Of a stretch of DNA of 64,000 nucleotides, positions 44,865-60,356 are shown one piece after another; positions within the stretch are counted from its first letter, which is position 1; the number at the start of each line of letters is the position of its first letter. The position numbers and the translations under genes are program-made. Source of the DNA: a virus; IMG/VR virus record IMGVR_UViG_3300042453_002354, positions 92,878-156,877 of that record, one strand, 5' to 3'. A model generated the notes under the pieces. The model was not told where the DNA came from, did no database searches, and saw only the letters and a list, made by a program, of their open reading frames with translations.

Positions 44865-44880
44865 ATCGATTTCCTTTATT

Positions 44881-44929
44881 TGATCACTATCTCTATTATT
44901 AGTATCTCAAATTTGGCCCTCCATGTCAA
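44881..44929 (-). promoter_or_regulatory. Repeated early promoter/leader element, copy 1
   Basis: TTGACA-tggagggccaaatttga-GATACT-aataatagagatagtgatca. Confidence 0.85.
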
Positions 44930-44991
44930 TGGTTTTTTGGTTATTTTATTTGTCAATTGTGAGTTTACAAATCGTGAATAATTTAAACCAC

Positions 44992-45186
44992 TTACAATCT
45001 ATAAATTTTGTCGTTTAATCTTACGGTACTTAAAACAAGGTCAACGGTTAGTATATCCTTGGCCGATGTTGAGAATACGTGATCGCCACCATGGCGGCCA
45101 AGGTATGTAACTTCCTTCGGTTTGTCAATGATACCTAATTTTTTCAATAGAAGAATAGCGGTAAGTGTTGGTGAATACGCTTTCAT
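44992..45186 (-). CDS. Hypothetical protein
   Basis: AGGA RBS. Confidence 0.5.
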   Translation of the reverse strand: MKAYSPTLTAILLLKKLGIIDKPKEVTYLGRHGGDHVFSTSAKDILTVDLVLSTVRLNDKIYRL

Positions 45187-45207
45187 GATATATCCTATAG
45201 TACTTCA

Positions 45208-45807
45208 TTAAAATTTTTCATTAAAATGAGATTCCCATATACTGTTAAGGTGTGATTCTGATACTATCACACACTCACTCAAGAGAGGCAACCATATATT
45301 AGTGGCCTTGTATGAATCGGCCGTCACTCTGTAACGCTTACCATCGGCCGTTCCCACAATTGTTATAGAGGAATCAAAGGGATCACGTGTAGCAAAAACA
45401 ATTAGATCAGGCGATTTATTTCTTCGCATAGATTCTTCCAGTTTTTGCATTTCATGTTTCCGATATTCTTCGGGATCTGGTTCATACTGCAATTCTATCA
45501 AATAATCAGGATACCATCTAGATAACTTCTTGATTAGATCGGTTTCTGATAGTGGCGATACTAACAATTTTTTGGATTTTGGTACTTCAAAGAATATGAT
45601 GTATGCGGCACAATCTTCCTCATAAGCTAGATGATTGAGCCCCCAGTTTCCGCCACGCTTAATTGCCGATCTAGTGAGATGTTTTTCTGCGTATTTTCTC
45701 GTGACTAGGAATCCACCATGGCCGGCCGTGCTATGAAAGGTCACTCCTCTTTCAATGATTGTTGATTGTTGTGATTTTCCCCAAGGCGTTTGTGTTGACA
45801 TAATCAT
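45208..45807 (-). CDS. DUF7007-like hypothetical protein
   Basis: TPWG..Q, STAGHGG, YEEDC motifs; behind repeat copy 2. Confidence 0.6.
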   Translation of the reverse strand: MIMSTQTPWGKSQQSTIIERGVTFHSTAGHGGFLVTRKYAEKHLTRSAIKRGGNWGLNHLAYEEDCAAYIIFFEVPKSKKLLVSPLSETDLIKKLSRWYPDYLIELQYEPDPEEYRKHEMQKLEESMRRNKSPDLIVFATRDPFDSSITIVGTADGKRYRVTADSYKATNIWLPLLSECVIVSESHLNSIWESHFNEKF

Positions 45808-45817
45808 TTCCTTTATT

Positions 45818-45866
45818 TGATCACTATCTCTATTATTAGTATCTCAAATTTGGCCCTCCATGTCAA
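45818..45866 (-). promoter_or_regulatory. Repeated early promoter/leader element, copy 2
   Basis: Identical to copy 1 over the element. Confidence 0.85.
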
Positions 45867-45979
45867 TACTTTTTGACAAAAAATTGGCGTTTTATTGAAA
45901 AAAAAAGGTGAACAATATCACTAGGATACTGTTCACCAAAACCGGCGACCTGCGCCTAGTGATTTACAACCTTGTTAGT

Positions 45980-46378
45980 TTAACCCTTTCTTTTAAATGG
46001 TACTTTCGCTATTCTCTCAAGGTTATAAACTCCTCTTTTCTGCCCTGTAGTATTTTCGGCACCTGTAACATAACACTCGGTAGCATTAAAGATGAAGGCG
46101 AACGAATTCCAAGGCCTACCACTATCGGGATCAACGAGAGATTTTAGTTCTTGTCTCGTTACAACTACACGGCCAAAGGTATCCACAATTTCTTGCAAGA
46201 ATGCGACTTTTTCGCTGTTTGTTCTGCTATTGTAAATACGCTTCTTTTTCTTGGTTCCCGACAAAACGCCCGTATTCGTAACTTTTGCGGAAACATCGGC
46301 CACAATAGTAGCTTCAGTAGTTTCGCCAAAATTCGTGTTTTCGGTAGTATTTGTCACATTTTCAGTAGTTATGCTCAT
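45980..46378 (-). CDS. Putative DNA-binding protein
   Basis: AGGAG RBS; T/E/N-rich N-terminus, basic patch, FG..VVTRQEL...KRGVYNL. Confidence 0.55.
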   Translation of the reverse strand: MSITTENVTNTTENTNFGETTEATIVADVSAKVTNTGVLSGTKKKKRIYNSRTNSEKVAFLQEIVDTFGRVVVTRQELKSLVDPDSGRPWNSFAFIFNATECYVTGAENTTGQKRGVYNLERIAKVPFKRKG

Positions 46379-46394
46379 AATATTATCTCCTATG

Positions 46395-46470
46395 TTTTTT
46401 CACACTTTTTCACACTTTTTTCGATTTTTTCACACTTTTTTGCGTTTTTTCTCGTTTTTCCTCATTTTTA
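46395..46470. repeat. Phased T/A-tract array (T5-6 every 9-11 bp; TTTTTCACAC x3)
   Basis: ttttttcacac tttttcacac ttttttcga ttttttcacac ttttttgcg ttttttctcg tttttcctca ttttt. Confidence 0.75.
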
Positions 46471-46701
46471 TTCATAAAGTTTTAGATCACGGCTATTCAA
46501 AAATTCATTCAATAATTGTCTAGCCTCGAACCAAATTTCATCTTCCGCTATTACTCTAGGTTCTGCAATGTATTTGTGATTAGCACGAAGTTTCTGATCA
46601 AGGTCCCATATCGCATCCTTCCATTTCTGTACGTCTGCCAGGTCTCTGGCAAACTGGTTAAACTCATTTTCATCCTCAAATGTTCGTGTAAATGTTATCA
46701 T
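46468..46701 (-). CDS. Hypothetical protein
   Basis: 77 aa; AIWDLDQ.LR...KY motif. Confidence 0.55.
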   Translation of the reverse strand: MITFTRTFEDENEFNQFARDLADVQKWKDAIWDLDQKLRANHKYIAEPRVIAEDEIWFEARQLLNEFLNSRDLKLYE

Positions 46702-46711
46702 AGCATTACCA

Positions 46712-46990
46712 TTAAAACGGATTATTCTCTAGTCTAAACGATCCATTACCTTCTGTCAATACTTTTGACACAATTGCCAAAAATTTATCGTGATCAATCT
46801 TTCTAAGAGTTAGTCCATGCTTTTTTGCGTATTTGTTGATATGTTTTGAAGTGGTTGTACTGTAAAACTGTTCACTAGCAACGGCGCCCTGGCCAGCTTC
46901 ATATACAACCACTGGCGTTTTATATGAAAACAGTATTGAAGCTGCACCAAAATTGAAAACTAGTTCGGTTGCGTTTGCCTTGCTCATAAT
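46712..46990 (-). CDS. Conserved phage hypothetical protein
   Basis: ILFSY.TPV, YSTTTSKHINK; AAGGAG RBS after half-copy of the repeat. Confidence 0.65.
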   Translation of the reverse strand: MMSKANATELVFNFGAASILFSYKTPVVVYEAGQGAVASEQFYSTTTSKHINKYAKKHGLTLRKIDHDKFLAIVSKVLTEGNGSFRLENNPF

Positions 46991-47006
46991 CATTCTCCTT
47001 ATATCA

Positions 47007-47023
47007 ATCACTATCTCTATTAT
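47007..47023 (-). repeat. Leader-only half copy of the repeated element
   Basis: ATAATAGAGATAGTGAT, its TAA is the stop of the upstream ORF. Confidence 0.65.
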
Positions 47024-47193
47024 CTGTCTTTCAATCTCTTAAACACATCAGCAGTAGCATCGAGAGTCTGAGAAAGAAACTCAAAGCACAATTCTTTGAA
47101 TTCTTCCATTTCTATATCGGTGTTTCGGCCTTCGGAAACGTTAGCGAAAAGAGTCCAGTAACGAGAAACCTTTTCTTCATCGAATCTTTCCAT
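47020..47193 (-). CDS. Hypothetical protein
   Basis: MERFDEEK after GGAGG; behind repeat copy 3. Confidence 0.55.
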   Translation of the reverse strand: MERFDEEKVSRYWTLFANVSEGRNTDIEMEEFKELCFEFLSQTLDATADVFKRLKDR

Positions 47194-47210
47194 ATCGCCT
47201 CCATCACTCA

Positions 47211-47257
47211 ATCACTCTCTCTATTATTAGTATCTCAAATTTGGCCATCCATGTCAA
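47211..47257 (-). promoter_or_regulatory. Repeated early promoter/leader element, copy 3
   Basis: TTGACA-N17-GATACT-aataatagagagagtgat. Confidence 0.85.
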
Positions 47258-47286
47258 TACTTTTTCGCCAAAATAATAAAAATATT

Positions 47287-47490
47287 TTAGTAAAGATACT
47301 CGATCAATTTTTCATAAACAAAATCACGATGTTGCGAATTAAGCTGATCCAGCTCATCTTCAGTCAGGGCGACACCATTTTTCCAAAATGCACCAGAAAT
47401 ATAAGCATCACAATAGTCTGGACAATCGGAATGATCAACGCCATCGAATGTTATATCATCAATTTTCAATATATTAAACATAGTACTCAC
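47287..47490 (-). CDS. Conserved small phage protein
   Basis: DGVD..D.PDYCDAYI..A....G..LT.DELD.LN. Confidence 0.6.
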   Translation of the reverse strand: MSTMFNILKIDDITFDGVDHSDCPDYCDAYISGAFWKNGVALTEDELDQLNSQHRDFVYEKLIEYLY

Positions 47491-47500
47491 TTTTTTATCT

Positions 47501-47713
47501 TTAATCCTGAAAAGCTACAGCCCAAGTCCGTGCAGAATCTCTAATCGCTTCACCGTTTGGATCATCTATGTAACAATCGTTTCCATCAGGGCCCCATACG
47601 TGAGACTCTGCGGCCTCTAGTGTAGAGTAAACACCTGCCACTGTTACAACTCCGGTAGAATCGGATAACACCACGAAAACTCTTTTCACATCATTCTTTG
47701 TATTCATAATCAT
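47501..47713 (-). CDS. Hypothetical protein
   Basis: Behind repeat copy 4; GVYST.EAA motif. Confidence 0.55.
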   Translation of the reverse strand: MIMNTKNDVKRVFVVLSDSTGVVTVAGVYSTLEAAESHVWGPDGNDCYIDDPNGEAIRDSARTWAVAFQD

Positions 47714-47723
47714 TCTCTTTACT

Positions 47724-47772
47724 TGATCACTATCTCTATTATTAGTATCTCAAATTTGGCCTCCTATGTCAA
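47724..47772 (-). promoter_or_regulatory. Repeated early promoter/leader element, copy 4
   Basis: TTGACA-N17-GATACT plus leader; preceded by inverted repeat ttggcgaaaata/tattttcgccaa (~47779-47809). Confidence 0.85.
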
Positions 47773-47827
47773 TACTTTTTGGCGAAAATAATGAAAATAT
47801 TTTCGCCAATTAAATCAATCACTTAGA

Positions 47828-48172
47828 TTAATCTGCTAGTGAATCGGGAAATTCATCCTCATACCCTAAAAGTACGTAATCTCCATGTTCCCATAGTGCG
47901 ATGAAATCAAAGGGCATTAGTGCATTATTAATAAGGCCGTCTAGTTCTTCAATCATTTCATCAAATAGTATTAGATCATCTTCATCATATTCATCAAGTT
48001 CCTGTAATAGTGAAACCGTAGGAATGAATAACTCTTCAGCAAGTTCAACCATTTTCAATATAGTTTGCTTTGGTGTTCGTGGTATAGCACCATCAATCCA
48101 ACAACCTTGAAGATTAATCAATTTTTGTGATATTTCACGGGCCGCCGGTGTTTCAAACGATTCTATTGCCAT
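47828..48172 (-). CDS. Hypothetical acidic protein (paralogue of 54808-55146)
   Basis: AGGAG RBS before MAIESF; G.WID and MIE..D.LIN...P...IALW..G.Y. Confidence 0.6.
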   Translation of the reverse strand: MAIESFETPAAREISQKLINLQGCWIDGAIPRTPKQTILKMVELAEELFIPTVSLLQELDEYDEDDLILFDEMIEELDGLINNALMPFDFIALWEHGDYVLLGYEDEFPDSLAD

Positions 48173-48182
48173 ATAGTCTCCT

Positions 48183-48728
48183 TTATATGTTAAACCACTC
48201 TGGTTTATGTTCAGGTATTCTCCATGTCGCAAATCTTGCTTTATCGTGTATATAATAGGTACGATATGCATCAACGGCACTCGTAGGGCTTTTGTATGCA
48301 TCAGGCATTGCTTGAGCAAATGTCGTTAAACCTTTACTCTGTAAGGCCGCCGGCGGTTCTCTTAATATGTTCATCAGTTCATCATTTCTTTCGCAAGCGT
48401 GAATTTTACCATATCTCCGTGTATACTCTTTGCACATTTCTACAAAATGACGAAACAACCATTCATAATTTTCGGTTGTTTCTCTTGTCCATATTGTACA
48501 AGGATGGTTTATATGCGTGATCTTGTATAGTATGGATTCTTTGTATGGTGAATGGTGTTTGTATCGCTTCTTCTTGCTACCTTTTGCTGGTGGCAGTTCT
48601 TCACCATCAATTATATGGTGTGTGGTGGACAACAATTGGGCCGATTCCAGAATCATCTTAACCACATGCTTATCACACAATGATCGTGCGGCCAGTTCCG
48701 GATTCTCATCAATCACGAATATATTCAT
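48183..48728 (-). CDS. Pyrimidine-dimer DNA glycosylase / endonuclease V-like family protein
   Basis: MNIF..D.NP..AA...CDKHVVKMILESAQLLST; LYK.TH.NHPCT.W; EYT.RYGK.H; QAMPD.YK; AYR.YY. Confidence 0.75.
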   Translation of the reverse strand: MNIFVIDENPELAARSLCDKHVVKMILESAQLLSTTHHIIDGEELPPAKGSKKKRYKHHSPYKESILYKITHINHPCTIWTRETTENYEWLFRHFVEMCKEYTRRYGKIHACERNDELMNILREPPAALQSKGLTTFAQAMPDAYKSPTSAVDAYRTYYIHDKARFATWRIPEHKPEWFNI

Positions 48729-48744
48729 AGAATCACATAATAAA

Positions 48745-48819
48745 TGGCTGGCGAGGTTGGGATCGAACCAACGACGAGCTGATTAACAGTCAGCCATTCT
48801 ACCACTGAATTACTCGCCA
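48745..48819 (-). tRNA. tRNA-Asn(GUU)
   Basis: TGGCGAG/CTCGCCA acceptor stem, G discriminator, CCA; anticodon arm GCTGA-CT-GTT-AA-TCAGC; GGTTCGATCC T-arm. Confidence 0.93.
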
Positions 48820-48829
48820 ATACTCCTTT

Positions 48830-48858
48830 ATATTAACATACAGAAAGATCTTGGTCAA
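48830..48858 (-). promoter_or_regulatory. sigma70-type promoter for tRNA-Asn (TTGACC-N17-TAATAT)
   Basis: -10 ends ~10 nt upstream of tRNA 5' end. Confidence 0.55.
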
Positions 48859-48861
48859 TAC

Positions 48862-49095
48862 TTAAAACACATTCTTAAACAGTCCATGCGCCTTTTCTTG
48901 GTGTTCTATTCTAGAGAATTGTAACAGTTCAAAGTTAGTAAGATTACCATAACCATGATGGAATATGCTATCAAGTGCATCAGGATTCTTAGCTAGGGCC
49001 TTAATCAAGGCCTTGTATGCGGTCATCGAATTACGAAAACTTTTAGGAAAACTATTTTTGAATCGTAGGGTCACTCTTGTTGATTTAGTTGCCAT
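48862..49095 (-). CDS. Hypothetical protein
   Basis: Behind repeat copy 5. Confidence 0.55.
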   Translation of the reverse strand: MATKSTRVTLRFKNSFPKSFRNSMTAYKALIKALAKNPDALDSIFHHGYGNLTNFELLQFSRIEHQEKAHGLFKNVF

Positions 49096-49111
49096 AATCA
49101 TTTCCTTTACT

Positions 49112-49160
49112 TGATCACTATCTCTATTATTAGTATCTCAAATTTGGCCTTCTGTGTCAA
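49112..49160 (-). promoter_or_regulatory. Repeated early promoter/leader element, copy 5
   Basis: TTGACA-N17-GATACT plus leader. Confidence 0.85.
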
Positions 49161-49172
49161 CACTTTTTGTAA

Positions 49173-49442
49173 TTATTGTAAAAATGATTGAACAATCTTT
49201 ACAAGGCCAACGGAATAGTTAGCATCATCAGAAAATTCATCGGCGTATTCTTCAGCGGCATCAAGGTCACTGAATTGTATTATATTGTCTTCACGCACAC
49301 ACCATATTTTATCATTCACTATGGCCACTTTGTATAAATGCTTGCTCAATTCAGAGGCCACAATTGAAAAATCTTTTGCTTCCGTTAAATTAAAGAATTC
49401 GATGATGTTTGATTCTCTTACGCACCACACTTCTGTTTTCAT
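49173..49442 (-). CDS. Hypothetical protein with internal tandem duplication
   Basis: WCVRESNIIEF..L.EA..F / WCVREDNIIQF..L.AA..Y; GGAGG RBS. Confidence 0.6.
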   Translation of the reverse strand: MKTEVWCVRESNIIEFFNLTEAKDFSIVASELSKHLYKVAIVNDKIWCVREDNIIQFSDLDAAEEYADEFSDDANYSVGLVKIVQSFLQ

Positions 49443-49457
49443 ATCGCCTCCGTATTA

Positions 49458-49504
49458 ATCACTCTCTATAATATTATAATGACACAATTGGCCCGCTATC
49501 GCAA
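49458..49504 (-). promoter_or_regulatory. Degenerate copy of the repeated element (TTGCGA-N17-CATTAT)
   Basis: Retains GGCCAATT spacer core and AGAGAGTGAT leader. Confidence 0.45.
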
Positions 49505-49600
49505 GCATTTTTATTGTGGTAGGCCATAATAAAAGTACTTGACAATCAAAATTTTTTATGTACGAAGGCCTTGCGGAAAAATTTCTTGACAGCTTAGTGT

Positions 49601-49695
49601 ATGGCCACCACATCCACCACAACAATACAATGGCCACCACAACCACCACAATACAATGGCCACCACAACCACCACAACAATACAGCGGCCACCAC
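49601..49695. repeat. Tandem repeat of 26-29 bp unit ATGGCCACCACAACCACCACAA(CAA)TACA; 7 CCACCAC cores
   Basis: CCACCAC at 49605, 49614, 49634, 49643, 49660, 49669, 49689. Confidence 0.85.
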
Positions 49696-49706
49696 TATAC
49701 TATTCT

Positions 49707-50069
49707 CTATTCACCTCTACTATAAATCTCCCATACATCGGACAGTGATACATGGAGATTATTTCTAATACCCTTTGGTATAGGTTCCCAGTATTGCTCA
49801 TCATCAGGGAATACACATACAAAACTTTTTACTATCTCGCTCATCAATTCGGCATCTTGTTTGCGATCATTTGTCTTTAACTGATTGAAGAAGAATTGTA
49901 CTAATCTGTCTATTAGATTGGCCGATGGAATTACATCAGGATGGTTTACTAGTCTTGATAATGCGTTCTTGTCACATCCACTCTTTTCTGATATTTCCTT
50001 TAGTGTAATTTTTCGCTTTTCTTTTTGTTCTAGTCTCTGTGTCATTTTTGCAAGATCAAAACGTATCAT
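49707..50069 (-). CDS. XRE/Cro-like HTH transcriptional regulator
   Basis: MIRF.L......E.KE.R.ITLKEISEKSGCDKNALSRL; AGGAG RBS; paralogue at 54418. Confidence 0.75.
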   Translation of the reverse strand: MIRFDLAKMTQRLEQKEKRKITLKEISEKSGCDKNALSRLVNHPDVIPSANLIDRLVQFFFNQLKTNDRKQDAELMSEIVKSFVCVFPDDEQYWEPIPKGIRNNLHVSLSDVWEIYSRGE

Positions 50070-50298
50070 GGCAATCTCTCCTATCAATGTTTCATAATGT
50101 AATCAAAACCGAACCTATCGATTCGTTTCCTTGAATGGGTATGGCCGTCACGCAATCCATTTTTGAAAACTACCTTCCGACTGGCGGAATCTTATTTTCC
50201 ATTTTACGATACTTGAATATGACGACCACCCAAGTATCAACCAATCTCTTAACAAGGCTCACTAGATCCGGTTTTCATCACACTATGATTTTTGTTTA

Positions 50299-50496
50299 CT
50301 ACTCGTCAATCTCTTCCCAAACAATGCGCTTGGCTAGCTTCCATCTTATTTTATTAAGTTCATTCAGTATTACATCTTGATTACTTTGTGATTTCAATTC
50401 AAGCTCAATTTTCTCAACCATTTCTAGAACCTCATCTCGGTCTACGATGGCCAATGCTCTCATTTCTGAATTGTTTCTCAAATCAACCATTTTCAT
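50299..50496 (-). CDS. Hypothetical protein
   Basis: Behind repeat copy 6; GAGGT RBS. Confidence 0.55.
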   Translation of the reverse strand: MKMVDLRNNSEMRALAIVDRDEVLEMVEKIELELKSQSNQDVILNELNKIRWKLAKRIVWEEIDE

Positions 50497-50513
50497 TTGA
50501 CCTCACCATTTTT

Positions 50514-50560
50514 ATCATTCTCTCTATTATTAGTATCTCAAATTTGGCCTTCTGTGTCAA
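50514..50560 (-). promoter_or_regulatory. Repeated early promoter/leader element, copy 6
   Basis: TTGACA-N17-GATACT-aataatagagagaatgat. Confidence 0.8.
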
Positions 50561-50838
50561 TCGTTTTTTGTCTTTCTATTATTCTTTATAGTCTGTACAA
50601 TCTCATTATAATCTGAACAATCTTCACCACATCCAGCACAAAACAGATTGTCCGGATCAATATCTGCACCACTTATCAGAAACAGTCTATTTCCAAAATC
50701 GGCCATTACTGTGGCACAACTCTCGCAATACGCATCTCCTATCATTTCATCACACAATATGATAGAATATGGAAACTGTTTGTGTTTCACGATGGTTTTA
50801 TATTCTGCTTTGTTTGTAATGAAGTGGCGCATCGTCAT
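50557..50838 (-). CDS. Small protein with two CxxC motifs (putative zinc finger)
   Basis: CESC ... CAGC; behind repeat copy 7. Confidence 0.6.
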   Translation of the reverse strand: MTMRHFITNKAEYKTIVKHKQFPYSIILCDEMIGDAYCESCATVMADFGNRLFLISGADIDPDNLFCAGCGEDCSDYNEIVQTIKNNRKTKND

Positions 50839-50848
50839 TCTCCTTTGT

Positions 50849-50897
50849 TGATCACTATCTCTACTATTAGTATCTCAAATTGGCCACACTCGATCAA
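50849..50897 (-). promoter_or_regulatory. Repeated early promoter/leader element, copy 7
   Basis: TTGATC-N17-GATACT-aatagtagagatagtgatca. Confidence 0.8.
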
Positions 50898-50905
50898 GTA
50901 TTTTA

Positions 50906-51118
50906 TTAAGATGATCCATATTTTTTGTTGATCGGCGCTCCACTATGCTCATAATGTTTCAATTCATTCAATAACTCTGTTACAGCATTAGTTACTTTAA
51001 AACAGGCAATTCTTAATCTATCTTTTTGGTAGCATTCACCAAAACGCTCTATTTCTTTTCTTATTGTAGATTGAGTTTGTTGTAGAGATTCTAATAATTC
51101 TTTTTGGAATTCGCTCAT
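50906..51118 (-). CDS. Hypothetical protein
   Basis: AAGGAG RBS before MSEFQK. Confidence 0.5.
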   Translation of the reverse strand: MSEFQKELLESLQQTQSTIRKEIERFGECYQKDRLRIACFKVTNAVTELLNELKHYEHSGAPINKKYGSS

Positions 51119-51119
51119 T

Positions 51120-51314
51120 TTATTCTCCTTCATTCAATTTTTGTGCCGTTATTGTCCAAGATATGGTTGAGATAACATCACCTATTTTCAGCTTAGTTTC
51201 TAGATCATCCACTTTACCCATAATGTCCACTAGATCGATGAATGAATATTCTAGTTGCTTTGATATGCTTTTTTCTGAGAAGTCCTGCCACCATTCTCTA
51301 TCAAATTTTTCCAT
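51120..51314 (-). CDS. Hypothetical protein
   Basis: Behind repeat copy 8. Confidence 0.55.
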   Translation of the reverse strand: MEKFDREWWQDFSEKSISKQLEYSFIDLVDIMGKVDDLETKLKIGDVISTISWTITAQKLNEGE

Positions 51315-51330
51315 TTCGTTTCTCCTATTG

Positions 51331-51379
51331 TTATCTCTTCCTCTATTATTAGTATCTCAAAACTGGCGTTCTGTGTCAA
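51331..51379 (-). promoter_or_regulatory. Repeated early promoter/leader element, copy 8
   Basis: TTGACA-N17-GATACT-aataatagaggaagagataa; leader identical to copy 9 through the ATG. Confidence 0.8.
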
Positions 51380-51397
51380 TGCTTTTTATGGACTATT

Positions 51398-51592
51398 TTA
51401 ATTCTCTAGTGTGAAAATATAGGTTTCTCCGTCATCATTGATCACTACTTCATCACCACTAAGAATTTTACTTAGTTCTTTTTCTGATATCTCCCACATG
51501 TCATATCGTTCTGAAAACAGGTCTACCGAAACATGATCAAAATTTAATCCGTCAATTTTCGATTCCATTCTTATCACTACTTGACTGGCCAT
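51398..51592 (-). CDS. Hypothetical acidic protein
   Basis: Behind repeat copy 9. Confidence 0.55.
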   Translation of the reverse strand: MASQVVIRMESKIDGLNFDHVSVDLFSERYDMWEISEKELSKILSGDEVVINDDGETYIFTLEN

Positions 51593-51608
51593 TTCGTTTC
51601 TCCTATTG

Positions 51609-51657
51609 TTATCTCTTCCTCTATTATTAGTATCTCAAATTTGGCCATCCATTGCAA
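51609..51657 (-). promoter_or_regulatory. Repeated early promoter/leader element, copy 9
   Basis: TTGCAA-N17-GATACT plus leader. Confidence 0.8.
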
Positions 51658-51742
51658 CCATTTTTTGGCTTTTTTTATTTTTTGTTGGTGTAGTGATATG
51701 AGGAATTTTGATTCAAAACGTCATTTTTGACGCTATTTTGAA

Positions 51743-51798
51743 CTAAGTGGTTGATTTTACTAGAATCGACCACTTAGCTAAGTTATTGATTTTACTAG
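51743..51798. repeat. Inverted plus direct repeat of CTAAGT(G/T)(G/A)TTGATTTTACTAG
   Basis: ctaagtggttgatt-ttactag-aatcgaccacttag immediately followed by ctaagttattgattttactag. Confidence 0.7.
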
Positions 51799-51800
51799 TG

Positions 51801-52208
51801 TTAGGAATTTAGTAGGGGTCTTGTTACAGTCTCGTAAACATCAGTTACGAACCACTTTCCAGTAAGATCCATCAGGTAAACATACTCTTGACCCGATCCT
51901 ACCGCATCATGCAAGAACGATTCGAGAGTAGATACCTTGGCCTCGGTCTCGGTGTCGCTTCTATCTCTTCCGTATGCTATGCACACACCATCTTGCGGTA
52001 CTGAAAAGTTATGCTGACCTGTGGGATGCATTTCATCAGCAAGTACGGAAAGATCGCCCAGCTCCATCAATTCGAGTACTCGTTCTCTTGTATTGTATGA
52101 TCTTAATAGCGTATCGCCCACACCTTCCGGATAACCGTCCCAGTGACAGTAAATATGCTTTATGCTTTGATCGTTCAATTGAATTGCTATAGTTGATCTA
52201 GTTGACAT
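51801..52208 (-). CDS. Conserved phage hypothetical protein
   Basis: MSTRS.I...IYCHWDGYPEGVG..L; C.AYGRDR; EY.YL....W. Confidence 0.75.
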   Translation of the reverse strand: MSTRSTIAIQLNDQSIKHIYCHWDGYPEGVGDTLLRSYNTRERVLELMELGDLSVLADEMHPTGQHNFSVPQDGVCIAYGRDRSDTETEAKVSTLESFLHDAVGSGQEYVYLMDLTGKWFVTDVYETVTRPLLNS

Positions 52209-52210
52209 GA

Positions 52211-52456
52211 TTACTCCTTAATTGTTTCAAGTATGGTTACAATTTTTTGTGCGGCATTTTGTGCATCGGATACTTGATCCACAACGTTATTCACTGCCCA
52301 ATTAAGTCGACTGTATATGTTACAATTCGGAAGACACGGCACAAATTTCCAATCTCTGATATCATTATCAGTGAAAAATTGGAGAATGTCTTCAAGCTCC
52401 TGTACAATCGTTTGGACTGCCTCTATTGCTTCTTGTTTATTATTCACTTTTGTCAT
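52211..52456 (-). CDS. Hypothetical protein
   Basis: AAGGAG RBS. Confidence 0.55.
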   Translation of the reverse strand: MTKVNNKQEAIEAVQTIVQELEDILQFFTDNDIRDWKFVPCLPNCNIYSRLNWAVNNVVDQVSDAQNAAQKIVTILETIKE

Positions 52457-52481
52457 TTCATTCTCCTTATTTCATAAGTTA

Positions 52482-52826
52482 TCAATCATCAGCACCATCA
52501 TAGTATGCGGGTAATCCTAATGCTTGAATTTTTTCTGCAATTGCTTTGGCCTGTGCTAGTGCCCTACCATCAGAGTTATCATATCCTACGTAAATTGCTC
52601 TATCTCCGGCTCCGTATGCTTTTCCTATGTATCTTAATCCTGCCCTTTCGGCACCTTGCTTATATGCATTCAATACCTTTGCTGGTACTTTGGTTAAACA
52701 CACATAAGCTCTACCGCAACCAAAACCACGGCCACTTGATCTTACCTGTAATCCTTCTAGAATTGCTTTGGTGATACTTTCTGATAACTGTTTCACTTGT
52801 GATTTATCGAGATTGTCTAGGTTCAT
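52482..52826 (-). CDS. Hypothetical protein
   Basis: GCGRAYV motif; behind repeat copy 10. Confidence 0.6.
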   Translation of the reverse strand: MNLDNLDKSQVKQLSESITKAILEGLQVRSSGRGFGCGRAYVCLTKVPAKVLNAYKQGAERAGLRYIGKAYGAGDRAIYVGYDNSDGRALAQAKAIAEKIQALGLPAYYDGADD

Positions 52827-52841
52827 ATCGTCTCCATTATT

Positions 52842-52890
52842 TGATTACTATCTCTATTATTAGTATCTCAAATTTGGCCTTCCGTGTCAA
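52842..52890 (-). promoter_or_regulatory. Repeated early promoter/leader element, copy 10
   Basis: TTGACA-N17-GATACT plus leader. Confidence 0.85.
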
Positions 52891-52911
52891 TACCTTTTTG
52901 GCTTTTTTTTA

Positions 52912-53187
52912 TTAAAATAATGTCATTTCAATTTTTTCATCATCGAATGTTTTCAACCACTTATCTATGGAATCGATATAATGCGCTCTAAAATTCAATA
53001 ATTCACCGACCACTATTTGATTTTCAAATAATTGTATGATCTTAAATTGATCTTGTCTTTTGTCATCGCCCCAGTATACACACTCGGCGATCAAAACGTG
53101 TTTTCCGTCATTGCTTTTCCACTTGTACGTATCGAGAACGGATTTACATTTACCATAGATCAAATCAGAAAATAGTTTCATAATCAT
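52912..53187 (-). CDS. Hypothetical protein
   Basis: AAGGAG RBS. Confidence 0.5.
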   Translation of the reverse strand: MIMKLFSDLIYGKCKSVLDTYKWKSNDGKHVLIAECVYWGDDKRQDQFKIIQLFENQIVVGELLNFRAHYIDSIDKWLKTFDDEKIEMTLF

Positions 53188-53414
53188 TCTCCTTTAATAT
53201 CTTTAGGAATGGTGATACCGCCAGCTTGCTTCAATTGTAACACCGATTTACACAAATTTTCATACGCTACCCACATCGTGTCTAATACTGCATGATTAGT
53301 AGGACTAGTTTCGTATAGTCTATGAATATTAAACAAAACCGTTTCTTGTAATTCCTCTAGTGTGTTTATCATATCTCTCTCACTAGAATATGGTATTAAA
53401 AGGTCTTCATACAT
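53184..53414 (-). CDS. Hypothetical protein
   Basis: ORF in operon. Confidence 0.5.
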   Translation of the reverse strand: MYEDLLIPYSSERDMINTLEELQETVLFNIHRLYETSPTNHAVLDTMWVAYENLCKSVLQLKQAGGITIPKDIKGE

Positions 53415-53424
53415 AGTGAATCCA

Positions 53425-53637
53425 TTATTTCACGTTTGAATAACCAAAACTCTTGTTCACATTTTTTACTGTATAAAACAATCTTGCCAGCTTGATTCTT
53501 TCATCAAGGCCTTTTCGGTCTTCACTGTAATCATATTCATCTATAGCATTAAGAAAGTTTCTTTTGCTTATCTTTTTATCGAATTCTATTTGAAATCTTT
53601 CGCCTTTATGGTTTTCACACTGTAAGAATCTTTTCAT
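53425..53637 (-). CDS. Hypothetical protein
   Basis: Behind repeat copy 11. Confidence 0.55.
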   Translation of the reverse strand: MKRFLQCENHKGERFQIEFDKKISKRNFLNAIDEYDYSEDRKGLDERIKLARLFYTVKNVNKSFGYSNVK

Positions 53638-53652
53638 ATCGTCTCCATTATT

Positions 53653-53701
53653 TGATCACTATCTCTATTATTAGTATCTCAAATTTGGCCTCCCATGTCA
53701 A
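53653..53701 (-). promoter_or_regulatory. Repeated early promoter/leader element, copy 11
   Basis: TTGACA-N17-GATACT plus leader. Confidence 0.85.
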
Positions 53702-53733
53702 TACTTTTTTGGTTTTTTTATTCGCCAATCATA

Positions 53734-54030
53734 TCAATCACTTAACCATTCAGACTGATAGCGATCAAAATCTTTTCTAAAGGTTGTTAGTGCATCATCT
53801 ACGGTTGCATAGTAGTATCGAGTTATATGCTCATTATCCAATCTCAAGCACAATCCAAGCCAGAGCCTTACAGAAATTCCATCTTCCGTGTCTATGTTCA
53901 GTGTGTTCAAATCAACTTCCGTTATGTCATAGTTTCCTTTTTCATTCAATTCAATCAAATCATTCTCATCAACATAAAATTGCCGATTCGAGTATCTTGG
54001 TGTAGTCTTCTTTACATAAAAATATTTCAT
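53734..54030 (-). CDS. Hypothetical protein
   Basis: GGGAG RBS. Confidence 0.55.
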   Translation of the reverse strand: MKYFYVKKTTPRYSNRQFYVDENDLIELNEKGNYDITEVDLNTLNIDTEDGISVRLWLGLCLRLDNEHITRYYYATVDDALTTFRKDFDRYQSEWLSD

Positions 54031-54062
54031 GATGCTTCTCCCTTAATCACTACAACCACAAA

Positions 54063-54320
54063 TCAATCTTTAAATGTTTTCGGTATATGAGTTATCACTT
54101 TTTGCCCATTCTTCAGTATAGCATCGAATTGTTTCGCATATCGAAACAATGGTTTCCAGCTTTCAAGATCTTCATTGTTGCGAAATATTGTATGAAGTTT
54201 CTTATTACCTTCAATCTGAAAAATGTCACCGAATTCACCGAATGACTGTCTAGTGGTTTTTATATTGAATCCAAGTGCCTTTATCTCTTTTCTGAATTGT
54301 GCAAGCTCAATCGTGTTCAT
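54063..54320 (-). CDS. Hypothetical protein
   Basis: Behind repeat copy 12. Confidence 0.55.
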   Translation of the reverse strand: MNTIELAQFRKEIKALGFNIKTTRQSFGEFGDIFQIEGNKKLHTIFRNNEDLESWKPLFRYAKQFDAILKNGQKVITHIPKTFKD

Positions 54321-54336
54321 GATGATTTCCTTTATT

Positions 54337-54385
54337 TGATCACTATCTCTATTATTAGTATCTCAAAATTGGCCTTCCGTGTCAA
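54337..54385 (-). promoter_or_regulatory. Repeated early promoter/leader element, copy 12
   Basis: TTGACA-N17-GATACT plus leader. Confidence 0.85.
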
Positions 54386-54417
54386 TACCTTTTTGGCTTT
54401 TTTATTCGTCAATCATA

Positions 54418-54792
54418 TCAACTACTTGCTTGATTATTGTAAATGTCCCACACATCATCTAACGAAACACTAGGGTTATCTTGAATACCTTTAGGAATTT
54501 GTTTCCAATACTTTTGATCATCGGGAAATATTGATACAAAATTGTGGATGATTTCTTTGATCAATGCTTCATGCTTTGTTTGATCATCATCTTTTAGTTC
54601 GTTGAACAAGAATTGAACCATCTTATCGATCACTGTTGCTGAGGGTATGACATCCGGCGCACTTCTCATTCTGGAAAGCACATTTCTATCACAACCACTT
54701 CTTTCAGATAATTCTTTTAGTGTAAGACGGCGACCTTCTCTTTCTTCTAGCAATTTTAACACGTATCCAAGATTGAATCGTATCATAGTCAC
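54418..54792 (-). CDS. XRE/Cro-like HTH transcriptional regulator (paralogue of 49707-50069)
   Basis: LTLKELSERSGCDRNVLSRM..PDVIPSA..ID..VQF; FPDD..YW..IPKGI. Confidence 0.75.
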   Translation of the reverse strand: MTMIRFNLGYVLKLLEEREGRRLTLKELSERSGCDRNVLSRMRSAPDVIPSATVIDKMVQFLFNELKDDDQTKHEALIKEIIHNFVSIFPDDQKYWKQIPKGIQDNPSVSLDDVWDIYNNQASS

Positions 54793-54807
54793 ACCATAAC
54801 ATAAAAA

Positions 54808-55146
54808 TTATTGAATTACGTCACTTTGCTCAAACAAGCAATCCACAACATAATAGCCATCTTTCCATAATGCAACTAAACCGTTTGGTCTAATCTTTTC
54901 GTTTATAAGAAAATCAATATCTTCAATCATATCGTTGTAAAATTGTTTTCTGGAAGATCTTTTCAATTTTTTCTTGTTTCTTTCGAGAAAATTGTGTAAT
55001 GTCATTACAAAACCGTACACGTCAATTTCAAAGGAATGTGCCATATCAAGAAATTGAAGCAAAAGATCATAGGCGTTTAGCTTTTCGGTATTGTCAATCC
55101 AACGACCCTTAACGATCTTCACCTTTGTTGATGATGTTTCTTCCAT
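54808..55146 (-). CDS. Hypothetical protein (paralogue of 47828-48172)
   Basis: KGRWID; MIEDIDFLINEKIRPNGLVALWKDGYYVV; behind repeat copy 13. Confidence 0.6.
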   Translation of the reverse strand: MEETSSTKVKIVKGRWIDNTEKLNAYDLLLQFLDMAHSFEIDVYGFVMTLHNFLERNKKKLKRSSRKQFYNDMIEDIDFLINEKIRPNGLVALWKDGYYVVDCLFEQSDVIQ

Positions 55147-55180
55147 GTTCTACCCCCACATTTTCATGAATAATAGTGTT

Positions 55181-55222
55181 TATCTCTATTATTAGTATCT
55201 CAAAATTGGCCAACCATTGCAA
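55181..55222 (-). promoter_or_regulatory. Repeated early promoter/leader element, copy 13
   Basis: TTGCAA-N17-GATACT-aataatagagata. Confidence 0.8.
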
Positions 55223-55286
55223 CAAAAAATAAAAAATTATTCTTCAGTGTTATCGAGGGTTTAGTTCACAACATAGTGCTTGACAA

Positions 55287-55547
55287 TTAGCTTTGATTGT
55301 GATCGTGCAATGGTATCTCTTCAATTGGTTGATCGATTCTTTCCTCCACCACGAATACATCAAAATGCTTTTCATCTTCTGGATGACAAATCTGTTCTAC
55401 AAACTTGTGATCGAATTTTGTTCGCCAATAAACAAATCTTTGAATAGTTGCATTCCATCGTGCTTGTGTCGCATTTCTGCATCTGCCACTATAGTATGCA
55501 CCATGTTCTAGGTTCGTTTTGGCTATTTTTGGTGTGTATCTTGACAC
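55287..55547 (-). CDS. Conserved phage hypothetical protein
   Basis: L.HGAYY.G.CRNA..ARW....F.YWR.KF....E.I.HPED...FDVF. Confidence 0.65.
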   Translation of the reverse strand: MSRYTPKIAKTNLEHGAYYSGRCRNATQARWNATIQRFVYWRTKFDHKFVEQICHPEDEKHFDVFVVEERIDQPIEEIPLHDHNQS

Positions 55548-55548
55548 A

Positions 55549-55770
55549 TCATTTCCTACTTTCTGTCATCCATTTCCAATCATCTTTTGCTTCTTGTAGT
55601 TTTTTCTCTAGTTCTCTGATTCTTTCTTTGAGCGTTTCAACTTCTCTCGCACCTGTTTCGTAACCATCGTACCAAGCTATTTCGACATCAGTGGCCGACC
55701 ATTCTGCCTCACGATTGAATTGATTTACATATTCTTCTGCCAATAGTTCTGGTTCTTTTGTCATTTCCAT
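55549..55770 (-). CDS. Hypothetical coiled-coil protein
   Basis: GAGGA RBS; promoter TTGCAA-N17-TAACAT at 55803-55831. Confidence 0.55.
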   Translation of the reverse strand: MEMTKEPELLAEEYVNQFNREAEWSATDVEIAWYDGYETGAREVETLKERIRELEKKLQEAKDDWKWMTESRK

Positions 55771-55857
55771 ATTGTTATCCTCGTTGTTGTCTGGTATATT
55801 TTATGTTACTATACTATAGAACACGTTGCAATAGAAAAGTAAGAATAAATATTGTAT

Positions 55858-56367
55858 ATGGTATTACGCTTTAATCAATTCATATCAGAAACATTAGTGG
55901 TATATCGAGGCTCTTTCGGTGTGTCCAATTCTCCTATTCTTTGGGTCAGTACCTCCAAGGAACATGCTGGCATTTATTCGTTTGATAGAAAAACTGGCGC
56001 AAAAGGTGAGGTCACTGAATACCGCATAACCAAAAGAATTGACGATATTGATCTTGGATTTCGTGCAGCAGAGATTTCTGTACCATTTGAAGAAGTTCGT
56101 GGCAGATTAAAAACTGCACTAATGGATCGATATGAAGAAAACAGAGTTACTGAAAAAACAGCAATCGATATCGCAGAAAAGCTAGATTCACTCAAATATT
56201 CAGGTAGCAAGCCTGTTTGGTTTTGGATGTACAAACCTGCTGTTATTCAATCAATTCGTTCAATGGGGTTTAATTGTATCAAACAACGTGAAGGTATACA
56301 ATCACACACTGGTAATGTCATCACTTATGGCATTCTTGATAGATCGATGATTTCTAAGATTTCTTAA
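55858..56367 (+). CDS. Putative ADP-ribosyltransferase-fold internal virion protein
   Basis: MVLRFNQFISE N-terminus; VYRG, WVSTS..HA..Y, G.V..Y pattern of ART-like folds; AATAAATA at 55844-55851. Confidence 0.5.
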   Translation: MVLRFNQFISETLVVYRGSFGVSNSPILWVSTSKEHAGIYSFDRKTGAKGEVTEYRITKRIDDIDLGFRAAEISVPFEEVRGRLKTALMDRYEENRVTEKTAIDIAEKLDSLKYSGSKPVWFWMYKPAVIQSIRSMGFNCIKQREGIQSHTGNVITYGILDRSMISKIS

Positions 56368-56482
56368 TTTTTACTTCTGCTCTCTTAGCTTTCTGAATAT
56401 GAAAATTTTATTCAATTTGGCAATCAAAGATCCTTTCCGGAAACGATAAAAAAGGCTTTTTAAAAGGTTTTTACTTTTGGAT

Positions 56483-57481
56483 TTAGCTCCAAAGCTGTCT
56501 AAAGTGATCCTTAACAGACTCTATCTCTTTTTGTATTTTATTCACATCTTTTAGTTTTTTCAGCTTTCTGATCAATTCTATGGTTTCTGGCACTTCTGGT
56601 GCTCTGAATATTTGTACAGTTTTTTGAAGTGGTACTAGTCTCATAGATCCTGGCTTCACTCTTTGATATAGCTCTATCGAATACGCTGGTGTTCTCATCA
56701 GCACGCTTCTCGTCACCAATATGCCGTTCAGTTCGTCTAGTGGTATGAATACCATTGTACCTAGATTATCCATATCTTGTGCTTGCATTTCTTTGGTGAG
56801 GAATGAACGCATATCAGCTTTTGTGATTTTCTTTTTTGCTGTTTCTTGTTCTAGTTTGTTCTTCGGAAACAGAGACTCCGGCGAGTTCATCGCTTTTGAT
56901 ACGGTCACAGAATTGTACACCTTTTGTGTCATCTTGATTTTCTTGCCATTTTTGTAAGCAAAAGATCTCATAGAGATTTCTTGTTCTGCATCACCACCAC
57001 CAAGTGAGGCAACGGGACGTTCTGAGTTCATAATGCTGAGTTCAAAGTATTTTGTTCTGTCTTTGTTGTGAACAGTTAGTGTGATGTACCAAAACCAAAC
57101 ACCTTTGTTCTTTACGTGTTCTCTATTGGTTTCGATCTTGCTTTCAAAGTTCTCTTTGAATATCGACTCAAAGTGTTTTTCGTATGCGGCTACGTTTAGA
57201 TTTTTGACCATCGCATCGAGCACTTGTAGCACTCTTTCGTTTGTATTGACTGTCGGTGTAGTTTTTGCGGTTCTTGATGAGGATTTCAATAGCTCGTAAG
57301 CCAAATTGATCTTCTGCATCATTTCTTTTGAACCACCCTTGTCTGGATGATTCGCAATGGCGGCAACTTTGTATGCTTTCTTGACATCATCTGACGTATA
57401 GCTAGAGGGCAGTTTGAGAATAGTTTCTGCCTCTCCTCTTGATAGTGTGATTTCAATGAGAAAGTTCTTAAAGTTTTTCAT
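56483..57481 (-). CDS. J-domain (DnaJ N-terminal) protein with capsid-targeting-like N-terminus
   Basis: MKNFKNFLIE; A..IL.L......VKKAYK..A...HPDKGGS.E.MQKIN.AYE.LK; AATAAATA at 57514-57521. Confidence 0.8.
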   Translation of the reverse strand: MKNFKNFLIEITLSRGEAETILKLPSSYTSDDVKKAYKVAAIANHPDKGGSKEMMQKINLAYELLKSSSRTAKTTPTVNTNERVLQVLDAMVKNLNVAAYEKHFESIFKENFESKIETNREHVKNKGVWFWYITLTVHNKDRTKYFELSIMNSERPVASLGGGDAEQEISMRSFAYKNGKKIKMTQKVYNSVTVSKAMNSPESLFPKNKLEQETAKKKITKADMRSFLTKEMQAQDMDNLGTMVFIPLDELNGILVTRSVLMRTPAYSIELYQRVKPGSMRLVPLQKTVQIFRAPEVPETIELIRKLKKLKDVNKIQKEIESVKDHFRQLWS

Positions 57482-57527
57482 AGCTAATAGAAACCTTTGA
57501 TCTTGCTTTCATCTATTTATTGTTATT

Positions 57528-57704
57528 TTATAGTGACTTTCCCCATTGCACTCGTAACCAAATCCTTTCGTGTGCATAGTGTGCAAATATCATCAGAACG
57601 TTGATTGCTATTGCACCTTGAAGTCCCGTCCAAAATGCTGTGATTAGTGTTGCAGTTACTCTCCAACTTAAAGCTCTTGTTATTGTTCTTTTGTGAGTTT
57701 CCAT
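57528..57704 (-). CDS. DUF2061-like small membrane protein
   Basis: ET..R...RALSWR..AT..T; Y.HERIW.RV.WG; AAAGGA RBS. Confidence 0.7.
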   Translation of the reverse strand: METHKRTITRALSWRVTATLITAFWTGLQGAIAINVLMIFAHYAHERIWLRVQWGKSL

Positions 57705-57775
57705 TGATTTTCCTTTGAATAAATAATATAATGGGTGGCATTGTGTCATATAATAATCATAGGATCAAGAACAAA

Positions 57776-58456
57776 ATGAAAAGTTTTCAAGAGTTCTTCA
57801 TATCAGAAGGCGTTAGTGATCAGGGTATCTTTAAAGCGGTATTTCTTGCCGGTGGACCTGGTTCTGGTAAATCTTTTGTTTCTAAAAACACACTGCCAAA
57901 CGCTATTCTTGGATTAAAAGTTATCAATTCGGATGAGGTTTTGGAGTTTCTACTCAAAAAACATAATGTAGGTTCAAATATGAATCTAATGTCACCGGAT
58001 GAATTGAAGAAGTTTGCTGACATAAGAGACAAAGCCAAAAAAATAACAGCAAAAAGAGAAGAAATATATCTCGAAGGTAGATTAGGTCTTGTCATAGATG
58101 GTACTGGAAGAGACTATGACAAAATTGCCAAAAAGAAAGCAGAATTAGAAAAGCTCGGTTATGATACTTATTTGCTGTTTGTGAATACTTCACTTGAAGT
58201 CGCCAGAGAACGTAATCGCAAAAGGGCTCGTAGTGTTTCGGATGATCTTGTAGTTCAGTATTGGAACGATGTTCAAAGCAATATAGGAAGATTTCAAAGT
58301 TTGTTCGGTTCACAAAATTTTACCGTTGTTGACAATAATAATGCAGATGAGGCCATATTGAACGATGTGTTCAAAGGTATTAAAAGGTTTGTAGATAAAC
58401 CACCTCGTTCACAACAAGCTAGACAGTGGATTACAGCTAAATCAGGAAATAAGTGA
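57776..58456 (+). CDS. P-loop kinase (zeta-toxin/AAA_33-like) with capsid-targeting-like N-terminus
   Basis: MKSFQEFFISE-GV; FKAVFLAGGPGSGKS; VINSD; LVIDGTG; FVNTSLEVA.ERN..R.R; AATAAATA at 57718-57725. Confidence 0.8.
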   Translation: MKSFQEFFISEGVSDQGIFKAVFLAGGPGSGKSFVSKNTLPNAILGLKVINSDEVLEFLLKKHNVGSNMNLMSPDELKKFADIRDKAKKITAKREEIYLEGRLGLVIDGTGRDYDKIAKKKAELEKLGYDTYLLFVNTSLEVARERNRKRARSVSDDLVVQYWNDVQSNIGRFQSLFGSQNFTVVDNNNADEAILNDVFKGIKRFVDKPPRSQQARQWITAKSGNK

Positions 58457-58882
58457 ATCTAGTGCTGGTTTTGTCTTCTTAAACCAATCGACTAATTTTT
58501 TGTTTGCATCTTCTATTGAAGTTTTTGATGTGATTTTTCTAAACTTCACAACGTCTCTCTGTTTGTAGTGTGAAGAGACTAACTCCCAAGAAACGGAAGA
58601 AAGATTTACGAGTTTACCGTAATTAGAAGAAAGATGCATCATTAATTTTATGCTTGCTGGTGAATTCTCTGCTATGTTATTATATGGTTTCGTGTCGTGT
58701 ATGTGTAGGTATATGTGATTACCAAGATTTTTTGAAGCCTTTTTGAATACAACATATCTATCACCCAAAACAGACTTCAGATCAGATGATAACTTTTCAG
58801 CTAAATCTACAAAATTGTCGTCGATGTATTTTGCGGTCAGTTTTTCAGACTGTTCAGCTAAAAATGTTTTCAAATCTTTCAT
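58442..58882 (-). CDS. Hypothetical protein with capsid-targeting-like N-terminus
   Basis: MKDLKTFLAE; behind repeat copy 14. Confidence 0.6.
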   Translation of the reverse strand: MKDLKTFLAEQSEKLTAKYIDDNFVDLAEKLSSDLKSVLGDRYVVFKKASKNLGNHIYLHIHDTKPYNNIAENSPASIKLMMHLSSNYGKLVNLSSVSWELVSSHYKQRDVVKFRKITSKTSIEDANKKLVDWFKKTKPALDSLIS

Positions 58883-58909
58883 GACATTTTCCTACAATTT
58901 TCTGTTATT

Positions 58910-58958
58910 TGATCACTATCTCTATTATTAGTATCTCAAATTTGGCCTGCGTTGTCAA
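58910..58958 (-). promoter_or_regulatory. Repeated early promoter/leader element, copy 14
   Basis: TTGACA-N17-GATACT-aataatagagatagtgatca. Confidence 0.85.
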
Positions 58959-58982
58959 TACTTTTTTTTTGATAAAAAGCAC

Positions 58983-60242: not shown

Positions 60243-60297
60243 GTTTTTGAATTTTGCGAGGACTCAATTATCTTAATATTTAAATATACTATCTATT

Positions 60298-60326: not shown

Positions 60327-60356
60327 CTGATAATTGATCAAAGTCGTTTGCATCTT

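Follow-up and report, generated by a model that had tools for sequence, protein, structure and literature searches.

Repeated early-promoter modules are known from T4-type phages as promoter-early stem-loops (PeSLs), which have been described for RB49/phi1, PST/T4 and nt-1/KVP40 (Arbiol 2010, PMC2839356; Comeau 2014, PMC4122927). In the model proposed for them, neighbouring motifs recombine and excise mini-circles that are able to re-enter at other motifs (PMC2839356; PMC4122927). Shuffling of this type has been documented before in T4-type phages. Here we describe a comparable locus in the IMG/VR virus record IMGVR_UViG_3300042453_002354 (156,877 bp; G000), the last 64 kb of which are hereafter called the window. 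On the minus strand of the window 14 co-oriented copies of a ~95-nt promoter-leader module are spread over ~14 kb, heading cassettes that total ~35 small genes. This array is very probably a hyperplastic early-gene region in which the promoter modules double as portable homology, i.e., the PeSL mechanism without the stem-loop. An earlier note on this DNA had proposed a recombination-driven cassette array of the PeSL type, and this is now supported by a close relative of G000 (G001), by independent metagenome contigs and by gene conversion among the copies.

PeSLs and the elements of the array have much in common. Both occur in T4-type genomes and are conserved over ~100 nt, from an AT-rich tract via the -35 box, a 17-nt spacer (N17) and the -10 box to a Shine-Dalgarno sequence and an ATG; both populate a hyperplastic region of ORFans and flag the sites of indels, replacements and displacements among close relatives, and degraded “half” copies are present in either case. 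The likeness to the PeSLs of RB49 extends to the A-tract, TTGACA, N17, a conserved leader and a AGGAGAATCAAA-ATG ribosome site. However, RB49 PeSLs carry a GGGG...CCCC hairpin in the spacer, whereas the array elements are without a stem-loop. The array is also far more uniform (an exact 20-mer is common to 13 copies, a 26-mer to 10 and a 32-mer to seven, versus an exact 20-mer in at most four copies in RB49) and its copies all lie in one 14-kb stretch, whereas RB49 has ~30 copies over several regions. Furthermore, its -10 box is GATACT with an extended -10 TG, and host and phage lineage (uncultured, freshwater) are different. At this locus we thus find a promoter that is sigma-70-like at the sequence level, an AT-rich tract, a Shine-Dalgarno sequence with ATG, an ORFan-rich T4-type region and exchange points in the motif. 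Because the stem-loop is lacking while all other testable PeSL features are present, we consider the elements a stem-loop-less variant of the PeSL kind.

The other systems that come to mind are less close. The architecture TTGACA-N17-GATACT had been recognized in the earlier note as that of lambda PL, and a sequence check agrees; the hexamers and their spacing are indeed shared, but the resemblance is one of 12 bases, the array elements being without OL-type operators and having an unrelated spacer, discriminator and leader. T4 early promoters (summarised in PMC2839356) serve the immediate-early genes, are read by the host sigma-70 polymerase and have an A-rich upstream tract and a similarity that goes beyond the hexamers. 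The last two properties recur in the array and the first two probably do, but T4 early promoters are far less alike than the array copies and are scattered round the T4 genome. The comparison with integrons, made in the earlier note and before it by Arbiol et al. (2010; PMC2839356), holds as an analogy of layout: co-oriented, small and mostly unknown genes are separated by one repeat, and cassettes are gained, lost and moved. As a system it fails, since integrons have IntI, attC sites after promoterless cassettes and a single Pc, whereas in the array each cassette has its own promoter and is exchanged by homology at variable points. Without integrase and attC, and with a promoter per cassette, the array is not an integron.

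Relatives of the array were recovered by an exact-word scan, which gave another IMG/VR virus (G001; 60,979 bp) together with 12 stretches of metagenome contigs, one contig contributing two (L0xx below; E, C and X2/X4 denote elements, cassettes and sequencing runs, respectively). In addition, two RNA runs and two DNA runs were compared with the array, all as assembled contigs. The sequencing runs in which the array is present come from lake, freshwater and aquatic metagenomes, and a megablast search with the array against 50,697 phage records gave no match. Some 100 single matches from a 16-mer scan of viral contigs were dismissed as chance, as were L018, one of the 12 stretches, and L029 (20-mer and 17-mer scans), which are without promoter context. 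Among 80 loci with denV-like genes from more distant relatives, no repeated 13-mer exceeded five copies and nothing comparable to the array was seen, a weak negative since these loci were not picked as early regions.

Judged by its genes, G000 is a distant T4-like myovirus, uncultured and from freshwater. It has matches to T4-type Gp23 (E=1e-126) and RegA (E=1e-42), a UvsX homologue (E=1e-34), and baseplate wedge and hub (gp5-like) proteins that have matches among T4-type PHROGs and share 28-35% identity with those of T4-like phages of cyanobacteria, Pelagibacter and Ochrobactrum. The T4 core gene set (major capsid, baseplate wedge/hub, RegA, UvsX) is therewith represented, at an identity to cultured T4-likes of ~28-35%. 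A first idea, that of a terminal-repeat host-takeover module of the SPO1/Twort type, was abandoned because these T4-type core genes were found. Positions 38552-60979 of G001 pass from the end of G000 (window position 64000) into G000 position 1, with an overlap of ~223 bp, so the “linear” record represents a complete circular or circularly permuted genome.

The 14 copies listed in the earlier note were all recovered on the minus strand, at the same positions, by repeat finding and fuzzy search; from copy to copy the distance is 278 to ~3,730 nt. A 26-nt core (GATACT and the first 20 nt of the leader) has 11 matches at ≤3 mismatches, versus 0.00 in 100 shuffles. The unit consists of an A-tract (-36 to -55; in every canonical copy), the -35 box (TTGACA in 11 copies, TTGCAA in E2 and E6, TTGATC in E8), a 17-nt spacer and GATACT (both in 14/14 copies), an AT-rich discriminator (AATAAT), a leader of 29-30 nt (12/14 copies; E1 and E2 have 41 nt), a Shine-Dalgarno sequence (AAGGA/GGAG) and, 5-8 nt further, the ATG. 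In the spacer, the first 7 nt are variable and are followed by the almost invariant GCCAAATTTGA; this box supplies the extended -10 TG, which all 14 copies have at -15/-14. The box occurs 10 times versus 0.1 expected, exclusively within elements, and includes an 8-bp palindrome, CAAATTTG, that is broken in four copies (E2, E3, E7 and E8). The leader has a fixed 3′ end, AAAUGAUUAUG. The aligned copies thus bear out the suggestion that conservation goes beyond the -35 and -10 boxes to the A-rich tract, spacer core and leader: it spans from about -45, in the A-tract, to the ATG. The whole-genome scan proposed in the earlier note, run with a position weight matrix and exact patterns over all 156,877 bp, places this promoter type in the array alone, even when only the hexamers and TG are scored. 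Both degenerate copies of the earlier note (49458 and 60298) were confirmed, though they have diverged, and two more were found, a promoter-like remnant at ~46759 and a leader-only copy at 47015-47034.

The leaders are unstructured and A/U-rich (folding energies of 0 to -5 kcal/mol, mean z +0.19), and neither their folding nor a search for upstream stem-loops revealed a family-wide structure. Within 90 nt upstream of the elements, the mean for the best hairpin is -8.6 kcal/mol versus -7.1 in 60 control windows, and hairpins are found there in just 2-4 of the 14 copies (E13 and E1 with a T-run, E11 and E6 without), which does not exceed the controls. The spacer allows no hairpin, and the stem-loop of the PeSLs is absent. 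As only E13 and E1 are preceded by a terminator-like hairpin, most cassettes are probably also read through from upstream and are not transcriptionally insulated. The genes themselves are largely ORFans: a Pfam scan of 30 array proteins left 26 without a match, and a PHROGs scan of a largely overlapping set of 30 left 24 without a family. The matches comprise two HTH_3 (Cro/C1-type) paralogues, in C2 (54418-54786) and C9 (49707-50069) and 56% identical to each other, a denV-like pyrimidine-dimer glycosylase, a DUF7007 protein and a few PHROGs of unknown function. The elements and their cassettes (ORF, open reading frame) are as follows:

E1, 58880..58984, minus strand: full module, -35 at 58958-58953, -10 at 58935-58930, predicted +1 at ~58923, ATG at 58882, 41-nt leader; terminator-like hairpin upstream; heads C1 (146-aa ORF and following genes).
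E2, 55144..55248, minus strand: -35 TTGCAA, divergent 41-nt leader; heads C2 (112-aa ORFan and HTH_3 protein).
E3, 54318..54411, minus strand: canonical; heads C3 (85-aa and 98-aa ORFans); extra cassette CY here in haplotype L024.
E4, 53635..53727, minus strand: canonical; heads C4 (three ORFans); G001 has the 343-nt promoter-plus-gene unit CX (77 aa) here.
E5, 52824..52916, minus strand: canonical; heads C5 (114, 81 and 135 aa).
E6, 51590..51683, minus strand: -35 TTGCAA, variant leader; heads the one-gene C6 (64 aa, 51398-51592).
E7, 51312..51405, minus strand: leader identical to that of E6; heads C7 (64 and 70 aa).
E8, 50830..50923, minus strand: -35 TTGATC; heads C8 (91 aa).
E9, 50494..50586, minus strand: heads C9 (65-aa ORFan, HTH_3 paralogue, 89-aa ORF behind a degenerate copy).
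Degenerate copy, 49425..49535, minus strand: TTGCGA-N17-CATTAT with related spacer and leader; precedes the 89-aa ORF 49173-49442.
E10, 49093..49186, minus strand: canonical; heads C10 (77-aa ORF, tRNA-Asn, denV-like glycosylase, 114-aa ORF).
E11, 47705..47798, minus strand: canonical; heads C11 (68 and 64 aa), missing from G001 and L020 with the joint in the leader.
E12, 47191..47283, minus strand: heads C12 (57 aa).
E12b, 46985..47034, minus strand: leader and ribosome-binding-site remnant without promoter (“half” element); heads C12b (91, 77 and 132 aa).
Intrinsic terminator, 45937-45897: directly upstream of E13.
E13, 45799..45892, minus strand: canonical; heads C13 (DUF7007 protein and 64-aa ORF); integration site of C6 in G001.
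E14, 44862..44955, minus strand: canonical; heads C14 (57, 98, 77, 87 and 163 aa and onward).
Distant degenerate copy, 60267..60326, minus strand: TTGTGA-N17-TATAGT preceded by TG; precedes a C5-cytosine methyltransferase gene.

G001 is ~96% identical to G000 and colinear with it in the flanks, without a gap >40 bp, over 20.6 kb and 21 kb; the 14-kb array is split into ~10 blocks. The comparison of related genomes that the earlier note had called for reveals cassette insertions, deletions and relocations whose joints fall within the element. The clearest case is C6, which in G001 is gone from between E6 and E7 and inserted at E13, 5.5 kb away. At its left joint the upstream flank of E13 is fused to the leader of E6 and at its right joint the upstream flank of E7 is fused to the leader of E13, both joints being chimeric within the shared core, and the empty donor site is occupied by one hybrid element. 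CX was added at E4, the stretch from E11 to E12 (C11) was deleted, and the methyltransferase region was replaced, the replacement ending at the -10 box of E1. The crossovers of C6 lie between the spacer and ~+10, that of the C11 deletion at +20 to +25 in the leader, and this variation between events favours homologous over site-specific exchange. In total, 12 of the 14 breakpoints in the array fall ≤62 nt from an element anchor (P=1.6e-9 against array length). Independent assemblies contain the same arrangements, which makes misassembly unlikely: C6 at E13 is found in G001, L020 and L023, CX in G001, L021 and L027, and the G000 order in L019, L026 and L028 at 99-100% identity, while a third haplotype, L024, with C2 replaced and the new cassette CY at E3, is consistent with two joints in run X2.

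The copies have also exchanged sequence in place. Three copies of G001 share a 33-nt block, comprising the proximal A-tract, the -35 box and the spacer, at 97-100% identity, and the spacer CCGTATG is common to five copies. Against this block, the positional orthologues of G000 reach just 58-76% identity, with flanks that are 94-97% identical. As it matches paralogues over orthologues, promoter sequence must have been copied between positions. Together with the non-consensus -10 box GATACT, used by 14/14 copies, this shows common descent and gene conversion instead of convergence.

The following mechanism would account for the array. Each repeat would be a complete expression unit, read by the host sigma-70 RNA polymerase and having a UP-like A-tract, and a gene behind it would obtain a strong promoter, an unstructured leader and a ribosome site, so that it would be expressed at once on infection. 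The 14 direct copies share 50-95 nt of near-identity and are, therefore, usable as homology by the recombination system of the phage itself, a UvsX homologue being present. Exchange between two copies would delete the intervening cassette and presumably release a circle with one hybrid element; the circle, or a co-infecting relative, could recombine with any other copy and thereby insert an expression-ready cassette, and non-reciprocal exchange would keep the copies uniform. We infer the activity and strength of the promoters, their early timing, the existence of circles as intermediates and what the cassette genes do. As for expression, in two metatranscriptome runs the contig over C12/C12b (45915-47246) has 4-8x the depth of its neighbours, while depth hardly varies in the DNA runs. 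The terminator hairpin at 45937-45907 is where one RNA contig has its end, whereas DNA contigs pass through it. These are weak hints of high expression of C12/C12b and of termination at this position.

A number of observations weigh against this reading. G001 lost the core of the E9 promoter and the first gene of C9 at an ATTGA microhomology, with the upstream A-tract retained, and the promoter of E10 is missing from G001, L020 and a contig of run X4, 77 nt having been replaced by 11; both are microhomology or illegitimate deletions and not element-to-element exchanges. No circular junction was found among the assembled run contigs, which end at repeats, and contigs of RNA and DNA runs alike break there. 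The use of the host's sigma-70 is read from the promoter sequence. Selection for intact genes alone would bias surviving indels toward the intergenic elements. Finally, part of the plasticity may be driven via double-strand breaks by a gene resembling mobile homing endonucleases. This is a free-standing HNH endonuclease gene (~280 aa), copies of which, 83% identical, are present at two array sites in two haplotypes: in L024 (372-1212, in array orientation) it replaces E2 and most of C2, and in L025 (1785-2631, likewise) it takes the position of the methyltransferase, immediately upstream of E1.

Could the elements be ordinary early promoters, alike by selection for strength, with unrelated indels that survive in intergenic DNA? 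Elements make up most of the intergenic DNA in the array, so that an indel of whole genes has to end close to one to be viable, and in two of the seven events the microhomology used lies outside the shared core. Nevertheless, the enrichment of breakpoints persists under a stricter null that allows gene junctions alone (P=1.1e-3), and the copies share, besides the non-consensus GATACT, positions in spacer and leader without known contact to RNA polymerase. Selection for strength leaves unexplained why joints are chimeric exactly within the shared core, why one cassette was relocated between two elements and why the 33-nt block was copied among paralogues in one lineage; the C6 joints and gene conversion largely refute this explanation, which we consider improbable. 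It is harder still to see the repeats as att-type sites of an integron-like system, cut at a fixed point by a dedicated recombinase. The layout, with co-oriented cassettes of one or a few genes split by one repeat, and the palindrome CAAATTTG in the spacer box would suit such a system, but the palindrome is broken in 4/14 copies, crossover points vary by event, attC-like hairpins are absent and each cassette has its own promoter. The earlier note had seen no integrase in the window, which holds across the whole, ~92%-complete genome: tyrosine recombinase (PF00589; controls matched 14/14) and serine recombinase (PF00239; controls matched) gave no match. No dedicated recombinase is known for PeSLs either. 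A site-specific system is, therefore, highly improbable. Least credible of all is that G000 and G001 differ through artefacts of metagenome assembly brought about by the repeats. Short-read assemblers do break and mis-join at repeats, and Logan contigs end at every element, but the exact shared core of 26-50 nt is below read length, each arrangement recurs in two to three assemblies made from separate samples as well as among run contigs, and point substitutions of 3-12% between the blocks go along with the arrangement.

A further idea would supplement the shuffling by homology and not replace it, namely that the extra conservation reflects operators in addition to descent. T4 switches its transcription to the middle phase by AsiA/MotA; a search for AsiA in the genome gave no match, as did one for RegB, neither search having a positive control. 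The box GCCAAATTTGA and the leader end AAAUGAUUAUG, invariant although neither RNA polymerase nor ribosome is known to require them, are putative operators: at the box the HTH paralogues would shut the 14 promoters together, and at the leader end RegA would silence the messages. RegA sites in T4 are unstructured and A/U-rich and include the AUG, with aaAAUUGUUAUGUAA as SELEX consensus and AAAUUAUGAUU as the gene 44 site (PMC3014915); the element leaders are likewise unstructured, and regA is present in the genome. That two HTH_3 paralogues are encoded within the array, in C2 and C9, that the 7-nt patch of the spacer varies freely next to 11 invariant nt and that AsiA went undetected in the search mentioned also fit. 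However, gene conversion alone can hold non-functional positions identical, the palindrome is lost in E2, E3, E7 and E8, and the extended -10 accounts for the TTTGA part of the box, so we regard this as a doubtful addition. If true, the whole shuffling array would be one regulon and a newly captured gene would, therefore, inherit both early expression and timed shut-off, which would matter in a T4-like phage in which AsiA was not detected by a search lacking a positive control.

Some neighbouring features deserve mention. Instead of the C5-cytosine methyltransferase (58983-60242) and the adjoining 268-aa ORF, G001 has an opposite-strand ORF of 240 aa without a Pfam match (window 58983-61193). 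An N6-methyltransferase-like ORF (61782-62363) is precisely missing from G001, and a Dam-family gene (41110-41610) lies in a duplication of ~600-700 bp (40909-41732) with flanking direct repeats of 64-70 nt, which is single-copy in G001. Three haplotype-variable DNA methyltransferase loci suggest a restriction-modification arms race beside the array. In C1, two plus-strand ORFs run counter to the array, one Zeta-toxin/AAA_33 kinase-like (57731-58456) and one of 171 aa (55852-56367), and a DnaJ-domain protein is encoded on the minus strand (56483-57481). C10 contains a tRNA-Asn(GTT) (48745-48819) between the 77-aa ORF and the denV-like gene; a tRNA-Thr(TGT) is located farther downstream than the array (33176-33249). 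C9 has a tandem repeat of three copies (49601-49695; unit of 26-29 nt, ATGGCCACCAC...), in which RNA-run contigs show a 3-nt length variant at 49647, and between two C12b genes four phased T-tract units (TTTTTTCACAC-like; 46395-46454) with a 10-bp period could form intrinsically bent DNA.

With our results, PeSL-type shuffling reaches beyond cultured coliphages and vibriophages, to a T4-like lineage from freshwater that is distant and uncultured. The data come from natural populations, in which one cassette was caught at two elements in haplotypes that coexist and the homogenisation of promoter blocks is visible. The module has a conserved site at which primers or baits could recover variable cassettes from metagenomes, and it marks a pool of ~35 early ORFans that are candidates for host takeover or counter-defence, a function which is a guess. 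For the PeSL family, the array indicates that the stem-loop is dispensable for the role in recombination and that ~50 nt of shared promoter and leader would be enough.

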